IMG/VR virus record: IMGVR_UViG_2698536403_000004
Strand: one strand, 5' to 3'
Length of the DNA stretch: 6,450 nt
Source: a virus
Lineage: Duplodnaviria; Heunggongvirae; Uroviricota; Caudoviricetes
Positions 909 through 6,450 of the stretch are shown here, piece after piece. Position 1 is the stretch's first letter; every line of letters begins with the position of its first letter. The position numbers were made by a program, and so were the translations under genes. The notes below the pieces were generated by a model. The model was not told the DNA's origin. It searched no databases and saw nothing but the letters and a program-made list of their open reading frames with translations.

Positions 909-925
909 TATCGCGTCCTCAACAA

Positions 926-1073
926 TGAATTTTGTGATGCGGTGCCTGGTGCCTCCAGGTGACGTTAACCAGTTAACAATTAACGCCGGATACAGAGAAT
1001 CCACCCATAACACTGTTTTTGGTTTTAACTGTTCCGCGTGCGCTGAGCCGCATTCACCGCATCACAAAATTCA
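926..1073. repeat. Perfect 19-bp inverted repeat pair (926..944 TGAATTTTGTGATGCGGTG and 1055..1073 CACCGCATCACAAAATTCA) bracketing 110 bp that contains further nested palindromes
   Basis: Arms are exact reverse complements when read directly from the sequence; the interior holds CCTGG..CCAGG and GTTAAC..GTTAAC dyads; located just upstream of the minus-strand gene starting at 908. Confidence 0.8.
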
Positions 1074-1475
1074 CTTTAAAAAGGGCGGCAGAGCAGCCAC
1101 GGAGTAAAACTGATACCGCCAAACGTCACCAGAAAATTGATAACAGAGGGCGTTGCAGCGGGGTTGTCACTTAAGCGTATGGTCAACCTGACAACCCGAT
1201 GTCCTCAACGGGGAAGGAATAACCCCGCCATACTTACCGCCGCGCCATTTCGCGGAGTGCCACAACCGGAAGCGCACGGTCGACGAAAATTTAACGACAG
1301 GTTATCTATGAACCAGCTACCTCGCCGTGCGCTTTCGCGTTATGGTCTGACTTTTCATGGAAATATCCTTTCAGTAAACTGTCAGTGCCGGATGCTCACC
1401 CGTGTCCGGCGCACGCACTCCACCTCACCCGTGGAGAACTCCTTAATTACCAACCTTAGCTTCGTTGGTTAGCTA

Positions 1476-4115: not shown

Positions 4116-4194
4116 TTCGAACCTCCTCTGGTTCTGTTGATTAGTGAATCACAGATTATAACCAGAGGAAGGTTTGGCTCCAGACGAGGTGAAC
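4116..4194. promoter_or_regulatory. Divergent promoter/RBS region between the moron and the replication gene, with an imperfect inverted repeat (4121..4133 vs 4160..4173)
   Basis: Minus strand: TATAAT then GAGGAGG then ATG. Plus strand: possible TGTTGA -35 and TATAAC -10, then GAGG 5 nt before ATG 4195. CCTCTGGT / ACCAGAGG form an exact 8-bp inverted repeat. Confidence 0.4.
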
Positions 4195-5280
4195 ATGCGT
4201 GATTATGCAAAAGTTTCCCCGCGATTCTGGCTGGGAGAAACGGGGAGAGAACTTAGAAAGGCGGGTGCAGAAGCGCAAGTTGTTGCTTTTTACCTGATGA
4301 CATCCCCTCACGCAAATATGTTGGGTTTGTATTACCTGCCAGTTTTGTACCTTGCTCATGAAACCGGGCTTGGTCCGGAAGGGGCTTCGAAGGGGCTTAA
4401 AAGGGCTGTTGAAGCTGGTTTTTGTAGCTATGACCATGATGCCGAGATGGTCTGGGTCCATGAAATGGCAGCCTGGCAGGTTGGGGAAACGTTGAAGCCT
4501 GGAGATAACCGTTGTGCAGGTGTCAGGAATGAGTATGCATCATTACCTGAAAACGCCTTTCTGTCAGCCTTTTACGACAGATATAAAACGGATTTCCATC
4601 TGGATGTGAGGCGGAATAATCGCCGGAATTCAGCAAGGGGCTTCGAAGAGGCTTTAAAGGGGCTTCTAAGCCAAGAACAGGAACAGGAGAAAGAACAGGA
4701 GCAGGATAAAAATACTATGCTTCATGGCGAAAAAATCGCCACGAACCAGGCAGGGGATGTTCAGAACGTCAATCCTGGTCAGCCAGCAGGCACGACACCG
4801 GAAGCCGATTCGGGCGCTGTGCAGCAGGCGATGACCGCAAGGCCGGAACAATCACACCAACTGCAGCAGCCTGAAGCCGATTCCGCCATTCAGCGGGAAG
4901 CCGATCAGGTAGTCCCGGAAAACACCGGGCAGCCTGTGGGACGAGTGGATTATCCGGATGTGTTCGAACAGGTCTGGCGGGAATACCCGTTGCGTGCCGG
5001 AGCAAACCCGAAGAAATCCGCTTTCAGTGCCTGGAAGGCCAGATTACGCGAGGGGGTGCCACCAGAGGCCATGCTGGATGGCGTGAGGCGTTACGCAAGA
5101 TACCTGGCGACTACCGGGAAAACGGGAACGGAATTTGTTCAGCGAGCGACGACGTTTTTTGGACCGGACCGGAATTTTGAAAACCCCTGGTTGCTCCCGG
5201 TAAGCGGCACGAACAACCAGCGTTGTGTGAATCATGTTTCTGAACCGGATACCGAAATTCCGCCAGGCTTCAGGGGGTAA
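4195..5280 (+). CDS. Putative replication initiation / replisome-organiser-type protein (361 aa; YdaU/O-position analogue), with a low-complexity acidic Q/E-rich linker
   Basis: ATG at 4195 with GAGG 5 nt upstream (in-frame TTG at 4174 is an alternative); sits where O-type genes lie; C-terminal segment DYPDVFEQVWREYPLRAGANPKKSAFSAWKARL...FFGPDRNFENPW resembles conserved phage replication-protein C-terminal domains as I remember them; unverified. Confidence 0.55.
   Translation: MRDYAKVSPRFWLGETGRELRKAGAEAQVVAFYLMTSPHANMLGLYYLPVLYLAHETGLGPEGASKGLKRAVEAGFCSYDHDAEMVWVHEMAAWQVGETLKPGDNRCAGVRNEYASLPENAFLSAFYDRYKTDFHLDVRRNNRRNSARGFEEALKGLLSQEQEQEKEQEQDKNTMLHGEKIATNQAGDVQNVNPGQPAGTTPEADSGAVQQAMTARPEQSHQLQQPEADSAIQREADQVVPENTGQPVGRVDYPDVFEQVWREYPLRAGANPKKSAFSAWKARLREGVPPEAMLDGVRRYARYLATTGKTGTEFVQRATTFFGPDRNFENPWLLPVSGTNNQRCVNHVSEPDTEIPPGFRG
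4379..4666. repeat. Short direct repeats inside the replication gene: AAGGGGCTT at 4379, 4390, 4635 and 4657, including an exact 14-mer AAGGGGCTTCGAAG at 4379..4392 and 4635..4648
   Basis: Read directly; two pairs about 250 bp apart; further repeats GAACAGGA x3 (4675..4700) and GAAGCCGAT x3 (about 4801, 4874, 4898) lie in the linker. Confidence 0.6.
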
Positions 5281-6245: not shown

Positions 6246-6450
6246 GTAAGCGTGCAGCAAGAACCGTATTGACGGGGATGTGTTATTCAGTCGGCAGTGC
6301 TACGCGCCAGGGGAGCAGTTCGCCGACCCGGCGTTACGGTCGTCACGAACGTAGGTCCATAACCGCCCGGTCTTCGTTTTCTTATTGCCTGGCAACAGCA
6401 CCGGGACAGGCGTGTCATCAGCATGGAGCTTACCGTCAGTCAGCACATAG
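6246..6450 (-). mobile_element. IS66-family insertion sequence remnant: terminal GTAAGCG end at 6246 and an internally deleted transposase; continues past the window
   Basis: Minus-strand translation gives ...HADDTPVPVLLPGNKKTKTGRLWTYVRDDRNAGS, matching the middle of IS66-type transposases as I remember them, then jumps in another frame to a C-terminal-like tail ...ELLPWRVALPTE-stop; the plus strand carries GTAAGCGTGCAGCAAGAACCGTATTGACGG at 6246, consistent with the 5'-GTAA terminal repeat of this family. Confidence 0.55.
6283..6449 (-). pseudogene. IS66-family transposase fragment with a large internal deletion and frameshift (junction near 6315..6327)
   Basis: N-terminal/middle homology ends after RDDRNAGS (about 6324); the C-terminal tail is read in a different frame (6286..6327) and ends at the stop 6283..6285. 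Confidence 0.5.

Follow-up and report, generated by a model that had tools for sequence, protein, structure and literature searches.

The perfect inverted repeat found upstream of dicB in this window, by which we mean the whole stretch of 6,450 nucleotides of viral DNA that was analysed, is very probably the closing helix of a folded RNA of approximately 150 nt which follows the terminator of the sRNA DicF, precedes the ribosome-binding site of dicB and is cut by RNase III. An RNase III site in the dicF-dicB spacer has already been described for the corresponding locus of Escherichia coli K-12, and, judged by its sequence, the window carries the orthologue of a feature known since 1990. A cut downstream of dicF explains how a single transcript can yield a small RNA and a toxic protein which are nevertheless uncoupled. 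In the literature accessible to us, no description was found of one covarying five-helix RNA preceding toxic genes which are unrelated to each other (dicB, kilR and the P1-type tciA/terB), of a closing helix of about 20 bp kept by compensation across genera, or of a kinship between the interior of this RNA and the STnc100-type prophage sRNAs, which can be found in tandem arrays. The unit offers a testable handle on the post-transcriptional control of prophage kill genes.

The inverted repeat and its operon

A repeat search of the window confirmed that positions 926-944 (TGAATTTTGTGATGCGGTG) and 1055-1073 (CACCGCATCACAAAATTCA) are exact reverse complements over 19 nt with a spacer of 110 nt, as the initial annotation had stated. 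Its judgement that such a repeat would hardly arise by chance also held: none of 200 dinucleotide-preserving shuffles of the window contained an exact inverted repeat longer than 15 nt, and the analytic expectation for a 19-mer inverted repeat within 300 nt is 7e-6. The further dyads described for the enclosed segment are both there, CCTGG-n5-CCAGG at 945-959 and the two GTTAAC hexamers at 964-969 and 972-977, the hexamers being 2 nt apart and not 3 nt as had been thought. The distance of 17 nt between the arm at 926-944 and the dicB start codon, the A of which is at 908, was likewise correct. What the first description of a palindrome-rich interior close to dicB had missed was DicF on the upstream side and the presence of a conserved, covarying multi-helix RNA domain between the arms.

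From its sequence, the minus strand of the window is the early-left operon of a lambdoid prophage of the dicBF type, with the order ydfA-ydfB-ydfC, DicF, the unit (1075->924), dicB and ydfD (Table 1). The DicF match scores above the gathering threshold of its family and lies between ydfC and dicB; it differs from K-12 dicF by one base, a terminator-like site is found at it, and it ends 9 nt upstream of the arm at 1073 and 7 nt before the start of the closing helix, P1, at 1075. The Qin prophage of K-12 has the same order and spacing, with approximately 96% identity from dicF through dicB; its arms differ from those of the window at two positions (window 1059 and 941), each of which gives a G.U pair. 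The rightward genes of the window are YdaS/YdaT-like and, with a repressor lacking a Pfam match, form an immunity region which is not dicA/dicC, so that the prophage is a Rac/Qin mosaic.

Table 1. Features of the window on the minus strand, in order of transcription. Arrows give the direction of transcription; two dots give the range covered.
Feature	Coordinates	Strand	Evidence and remarks
Repressor gene, cI position	2694->2275	-	No Pfam match
ydfA homologue	2090->1854	-	DUF1391
ydfB-like ORF	between ydfA homologue and ydfC	-	
ydfC	1694->1476	-	
DicF sRNA with intrinsic terminator	1135->1083	-	Rfam RF00039, 75 bits against a gathering score of 48; match 1134->1083
P1, closing helix	1075-1055 with 944-924	-	
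P1, promoter-proximal (5') strand	1055..1075	-	Arm 1055-1073 plus G1074 and A1075; exact repeat, folds, 7/21 P1 pairs compensatory
P2, inner hairpin (GCGGC...GC.CGC)	1036..1051; 1051-1047 with 1041-1036	-	
P3	988..1035; 1035-1033 with 990-988	-	Surrounds a variable insert; 2/3 pairs compensatory
P4 hairpin	961..987; 987-979 with 969-961	-	Loop conserved, contains GUUAACU; covers the GTTAAC hexamers
P5 hairpin, CCUGG-AGGCA-CCAGG	945..959; 959-955 with 949-945	-	The CCTGG-n5-CCAGG dyad
P1, promoter-distal (3') strand	924..944	-	Arm 926-944 plus U925 and U924; repeat, folds, covariation
Spacer with dicB Shine-Dalgarno GAGGA (920-916)	909..923	-	Sequence; directly at the foot of P1
dicB, 62-aa cell-division inhibitor	908->720	-	Pfam PF05358, 127 bits; annotation of near-identical loci; first gene downstream of the unit
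ydfD, DUF1482 lysis protein	723->532	-	Pfam PF07358 and K-12 annotation; overlaps the end of dicB by 4 nt

The locus is widespread. Segment 700-1500 was found in 4,742 of 5,426 complete E. coli genomes, at a median of 2 and a maximum of 10 places per genome, where it is annotated as dicB/ydfC/ydfD. The unit is present in 4,653-4,742 of the same genomes, again with a median of 2 places and a maximum of 9-10, and its copy number follows the number of lambdoid prophages. Within the window itself, a scan with the covariance model described below (R1) found a single copy.

Several other elements of the window were noted. A near-perfect palindrome, TACCCATAGGTATTTA-n5-TAAATACCCATGGGTA, lies at 2196-2232 between the repressor gene and the ydfA homologue, and two exact direct repeats of ACCTGTGGGTATT (2731-2743 and 2755-2767) lie in the divergent spacer between the repressor and the cro position; the early-left and early-right promoters probably have their operators in these elements. 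An ORF on the plus strand (4174-5280; 368 aa, no Pfam match) contains four GGGGCTTCGAAGGGGCTT-like repeat copies, arranged as two pairs 256 nt apart (4363-4405 and 4630-4672), which resemble iterons of a lambdoid origin within a replication-initiator gene. At the right end of the window (6300-6446, minus strand) there is a fragment matching the IS66-family transposase (Pfam PF03050, E = 4e-9), so that an insertion sequence interrupts or borders the prophage at this point.

A conserved five-helix RNA

When the 148-nt unit was folded as minus-strand RNA, a check which had been proposed at the outset, the arms closed a helix and the folding energy was -62.5 kcal/mol (z = -5.85 against shuffles). 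In both the minimum-energy and the centroid folds the 19-bp arm helix is extended by G1074.U925 and A1075-U924 to 21 bp, with an AU-rich foot and a GC-rich top. A helix of 19 Watson-Crick pairs with one G.U and one A-U pair has the dimensions of an RNase III substrate, which comprises about two helical turns, or roughly 20 bp, of nearly uninterrupted double-stranded RNA.

The structure was then examined in an alignment of 22 distinct units, in which the pairs of the five-helix structure were counted. Standard pairs occupy 92.9% of cells, a share which falls to 31-41% if the 3' partners are displaced by 1-3 columns, and two-sided (compensatory) changes were found at 14 of the 43 pairs, seven of them in P1, two in P3, four in P4 and one in P5. 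Of 500 column shuffles, no more than 2 reached the observed values. In the copies from Citrobacter, Lelliottia, Pseudescherichia and Klebsiella, a closing helix of approximately 16-22 bp is kept with entirely different arm sequences, so that across homologues the arms diverge yet stay paired, whilst P2, the P4 loop and P5 of the interior are conserved. The covariance model built from this alignment, R1, scores 174.9 bits on the minus strand of the window and 33.3 bits on the plus strand. Taken together, the retention of pairs, the compensatory changes and the strand-specific score identify the unit as a selected, strand-specific RNA structure and not a transposon or a DNA operator.

The individual helices contribute to this in differing degrees. 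P2 is near-invariant in sequence among the dicB-type homologues, with 99% of its cells paired and little covariation evidence for or against it, whereas in P4 four of the nine pairs are compensatory (e.g., G-C to U-A and U-A to G-C) and P5 is paired in 100% of cells with a U-A to G-C change in five sequences. The core of P5, GGAGGCAC, is common to the STnc100-type RNAs discussed below. The insert surrounded by P3 varies between homologues in both length and sequence, the length differences being non-multiples of 3. An in-frame ORF with a GTG start (720-1013) does run from dicB into the unit, but a coding extension of dicB was rejected on account of these indels and of the compensatory variation of the pairs.

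Homologous units were found approximately 20 nt upstream of kilR in Rac-type phages, approximately 37 nt before tciA/terB in P7 and D6, which are P1-like phages, and in front of other small ORFs in prophages of Klebsiella, Citrobacter, Lelliottia and Pseudescherichia. Wherever its context was examined, the unit immediately precedes a phage-operon gene encoded on the same strand. As a pattern scan of contigs returned mostly chance GC-rich matches, only the 14 loci in which the GGAGGCA module was also present were used. The copies in the P1-like phages retain the interior with a closing helix of only 8-9 bp, and RNase III cleavage therefore cannot be the sole reason for its conservation.

Some of these loci showed peculiarities of their own. 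In P7 (2729-2813) and D6 (2734-2818) a tRNA-like gene lies just upstream of the unit; against a selenocysteine-tRNA model it scores 46.6 bits in P7 and 43.1 bits in D6, where the threshold is 47, and the D6 record has it annotated on the other strand, as an unusual tRNA-Ser(UGA). The jumbo-phage record of Aeromonas phage AP1 (MT713136.1, 249906-250152) contains 247 bp which are 98% identical to E. coli dicF and the unit, the similarity ending a few codons into dicB. The stretch is located close to where the linear record ends, and a chimeric assembly, contamination or a very recent transfer could each account for it.

Probable processing by RNase III and competing explanations

In K-12, the full-length dicBF transcript is cut by RNase III to give a DicF of 72 nt (Faubladier, Cam and Bouche, 1990, as cited in PMC5069750 and PMC9438474). 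Counted from the annotated 5' end of K-12 DicF, nucleotide 72 is the tenth of the 19 nucleotides of the proximal arm, equivalent to window position 1064, and lies in the middle of P1, where RNase III is expected to cut a helix of roughly 20 bp. In the RNA-seq data of Gordon et al. (2017; Table S1), position 1649470 (dicF-dicB), which is flagged as a known site and falls 8 nt inside the unit, is covered by 26 reads in delta-rnc, the two wild-type replicates having 0 and 0 reads; this coverage in delta-rnc alone suggests that no excised interior builds up in exponentially growing wild-type K-12. We infer the placement of the published cut within P1 from the length of the 72-nt fragment, likely accurate to within 1-2 nt, and from these low-resolution, low-count reads. 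The proposal in the initial annotation that the repeat could be an RNase III processing site fits the K-12 data as they are reported in these sources, namely the 72-nt DicF and the delta-rnc-only coverage.

Processing of the operon transcript by RNase III as well as RNase E was confirmed by Ragunathan et al. (2023), who detected a 1,146-nt ydfABC-dicF RNA and a 1,608-nt read-through RNA, ydfABC-dicFB-ydfD, and mapped a further RNase III site, upstream of DicF, from which a 190-nt species arises. The literature, as represented in these reports, thus has two RNase III sites for DicF, a 5' site yielding the 190-nt species and a 3' site yielding the 72-nt one (the latter in PMC5069750 and PMC9438474). 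In the window, the ydfC-dicF spacer (1136-1475) is itself highly structured (345 nt, -129.8 kcal/mol, z = -3.4) and contains a second inverted repeat of 13 nt, 92% complementary (1267-1279 and 1325-1337), which in the minus-strand RNA forms a long hairpin. If a DicF precursor of 190 nt ends at the terminator, its 5' end would fall near 1270, within the 3' strand of the 1267-1337 hairpin, which fits the upstream site of Ragunathan et al. (2023).

The following scheme would account for these observations. Most transcripts would end at the DicF terminator, and the read-through transcripts, which alone would be able to express dicB and ydfD, would include both arms; these would pair, closing the four inner helices P2-P5, and host RNase III would cut both strands approximately 10 bp above the foot of the helix. 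The enzyme makes staggered cuts which leave 2-nt 3' overhangs, and in general its substrates are free of antideterminant base pairs in the proximal and distal boxes. The proximal cut would be at about 1064/1063, a position taken from the end of the 72-nt DicF, and its partner on the second strand would, by the overhang rule, be at about 934/933; the equivalent K-12 positions are 1649453/54 and 1649583/84. Three products could be expected: the 72-nt DicF isoform, once its 5' end has been made by RNase E, an excised structured RNA of approximately 130 nt, and a separate dicB-ydfD mRNA bearing a 5' monophosphate on a leader of approximately 25 nt.

As to the consequences of cutting, our best guess is that it uncouples the toxic dicB message from the sRNA part and frees the Shine-Dalgarno sequence lying against the helix foot. 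For the uncut Qin-type RNA, partition-function folding predicts that the dicB Shine-Dalgarno pairs with the U-tract of the terminator at the foot of P1, with an unpaired probability of 0.02-0.07, and that this rises after the cut to 0.06-0.46 in Qin-type loci; in Rac-type loci, the effect of cutting on accessibility was not consistent in the same kind of folding. The second half of this proposal is therefore loosely held, as folding lends it weak support in Qin-type loci and no consistent support in Rac-type ones.

A different view of the unit is that it is mainly a cis-acting leader of the toxic gene downstream (dicB, kilR or tciA), the interior of which binds a protein, a small molecule or an RNA and so gates translation or stability, cutting by RNase III being secondary or confined to some lineages. 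That the start codons 17-45 nt downstream of it belong to a variety of small and mostly host-toxic genes (dicB, kilR, tciA/terB and others) would suit such a role, as would the conserved loop and junction sequences, the covariation of P3-P5, the retention of the interior in P1-like copies which lack the long stem, and the predicted pairing of the Shine-Dalgarno at the helix foot in Qin-type loci. However, no riboswitch or leader family of Rfam matched the unit and no ligand or partner is known; the compensated helix of approximately 16-22 bp in the lambdoid-type copies exceeds what a simple leader needs and suits a substrate for a double-strand-specific nuclease; and the STnc100-type relatives stand alone with their own terminators and have no downstream ORF. 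We consider it unlikely that the leader function is the principal one. Control by processive antitermination, with the unit acting like the put RNA of HK022 to allow read-through of downstream early-left terminators, would also be in keeping with a conserved structured RNA in a phage early operon, and no recognisable N protein is encoded in the window. Against this, the unit is downstream and not upstream of the DicF terminator, it is also found in N-encoding phages such as POCJ13, and its architecture differs from that of put, a 73-nt V-shaped RNA of two stems (PMC9378689); in addition, the STnc100 model had no match in HK022 (20-40.7 kb) at E <= 1, which is a weak test as this is not a put model. 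An antiterminator is thus a very improbable reading. A retron msr-msd RNA, in which inverted repeats (a1/a2) flank a structured RNA ahead of a reverse transcriptase gene, was also rejected, the downstream genes being dicB and ydfD and no reverse transcriptase match having been found among the ORFs scanned in the window.

Two readings at the level of DNA had been put forward initially, and neither survives well. The 148-bp unit has the terminal inverted repeats, the size and the many copies per genome of a miniature inverted-repeat element (MITE) that might have been inserted upstream of dicB; yet its flanks, CAACAA and CTTTAA, show no target-site duplication, the copies, whose number tracks that of lambdoid prophages in the E. 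coli genomes surveyed, have the identical operon position and orientation in every case examined, and neither of the two examined loci that lack all or part of the unit is a precise empty site, one being an IS1 junction and the other a deletion junction. The arms, moreover, diverge fully between genera but stay complementary, through G.U pairs and a 1-nt bulge, whilst P2, the P4 loop and P5 are conserved, which is the reverse of the MITE pattern. A mobile element was accordingly rejected on the missing duplication, the covarying arms, the fixed context and the want of empty sites among the loci examined, and we give it hardly any credence. The other suggestion was a regulator binding site. At the DNA level, the dyad would be bound by a repressor or some further dimeric DNA-binding protein, or would form a cruciform, readings which a perfect repeat with nested GTTAAC and CCTGG/CCAGG palindromes might well invite. 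The arms are, however, separated by 110 bp, homologues (K-12 included, with its two arm G.U pairs) pair through wobbles which on the opposite strand are C/A mismatches, R1 strongly favours the minus strand (174.9 against 33.3 bits), and the prophage has its likely operators at other sites, 2196-2232 and 2731-2767; the probability of a DNA-level site is correspondingly slight in the extreme.

Comparison with STnc100 and other known systems

The closing helix of an RNase III-processed RNA, which we prefer as the reading of the repeat, encloses an interior with relatives outside the dicB-type loci. The Rfam model of STnc100 (RF02076) matches the window at 1085->876 with 37.7 bits (E = 1.3e-5), below its gathering score of 47, and the related loci behave in the same way, all 11 of the 11 tested scoring 30.8-43.8 bits; detection is reciprocal, in that R1 scores 40-68 bits on STnc100-type loci. 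Aligned to the Rfam consensus, the unit possesses the core architecture of STnc100, i.e., the GGUGAAU junction, a P4-like hairpin, the GGAGGCAC hairpin and the CACC closing strand. With STnc100 and PasD it has in common the GGUG/CACC closing pairing, a 5' hairpin after GGUGAAU, the P4-like hairpin and a 3' module, UCACC-(N)GGAGGCACC(N)GG-CACC. The STnc100-type units, however, look like stand-alone sRNA genes, composed of a promoter-like sequence, a folded domain of approximately 100 nt closed by a short stem, a linker and an intrinsic terminator of their own, found 20-40 nt downstream, whereas the unit in the window is intra-operonic, differs in its P2 hairpin, has a 21-bp closing helix and leads directly into an ORF, no terminator following it before the dicB start codon 17 nt away. 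By sequence comparison, it would be a distant relative of STnc100 and not a member of that family, with an interior belonging to the same RNA superfamily as the STnc100 prophage sRNAs. A 2026 preprint links STnc100 to the PasD sRNAs and leaves dicB, kilR and dicF unmentioned.

In some viral contigs, STnc100-type units form tandem arrays of 3-5 units approximately 250 nt apart (L021, 2310-3366; L079, 4370-5471 and 8381-8514; L041, 1728-2340; L029, 363-1004), most of them with their own downstream intrinsic terminator; such arrays would amount to multiple paralogous sRNA genes which have one folded 5' domain in common.

It is tempting to go further and propose that the 110-nt interior is a functional domain of a large prophage RNA superfamily, comprising the dicB, kilR and tciA leaders, STnc100 and PasD, that its excision by RNase III through the flanking helix is an irreversible switch by which a host-killing protein is expressed in step with read-through of the sRNA terminator, and that the RNA of approximately 130 nt, or the uncut leader, binds a protein or RNA partner. 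We offer this as a speculation which may well prove wrong.

The closest known system is the RNase III site of dicBF in the Qin prophage of K-12, an orthologous locus with the order dicF-unit-dicB, the spacing and the fold of the window, in which the perfect 19-mer arms of the window are replaced by arms containing the two G.U pairs noted above. The Rac prophage of K-12 is like the window in possessing an Hfq-bound sRNA, KilS (1418502->1418405), with a DicF-like terminator hairpin, followed by a unit (159.5 bits with R1) and a small gene for an FtsZ inhibitor, kilR, and unlike it in that kilR is unrelated to dicB and a G.U pair and a bulge of 1 nt are found in the 3' arm. The Rac unit, between KilS and kilR (NC_000913.3, 1418230-1418404), also has one broken pair in P5 (CCUGG/CCAGA). 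The delta-rnc site which Gordon et al. (2017) assigned to kilR-sieB is at 1418510 and falls upstream of kilS, outside this unit, and no RNase III site has been reported inside the KilS-kilR unit of K-12.

On a wider scale, the arrangement recalls the processing sites of other phages. In the early and late mRNAs of T7, the N leader of lambda and lambda sib, a long helix in a polycistronic phage transcript is cut by host RNase III, which separates functional RNAs. In the precursors of 16S and 23S rRNA, the stems are helices made by the sequences which flank a structured RNA. The T7 and lambda sites are simple hairpins that lack a conserved multi-helix interior of 110 nt, unlike the dicF-dicB unit, the helix of which is formed, like the 16S and 23S precursor stems, by sequences flanking a structured RNA.
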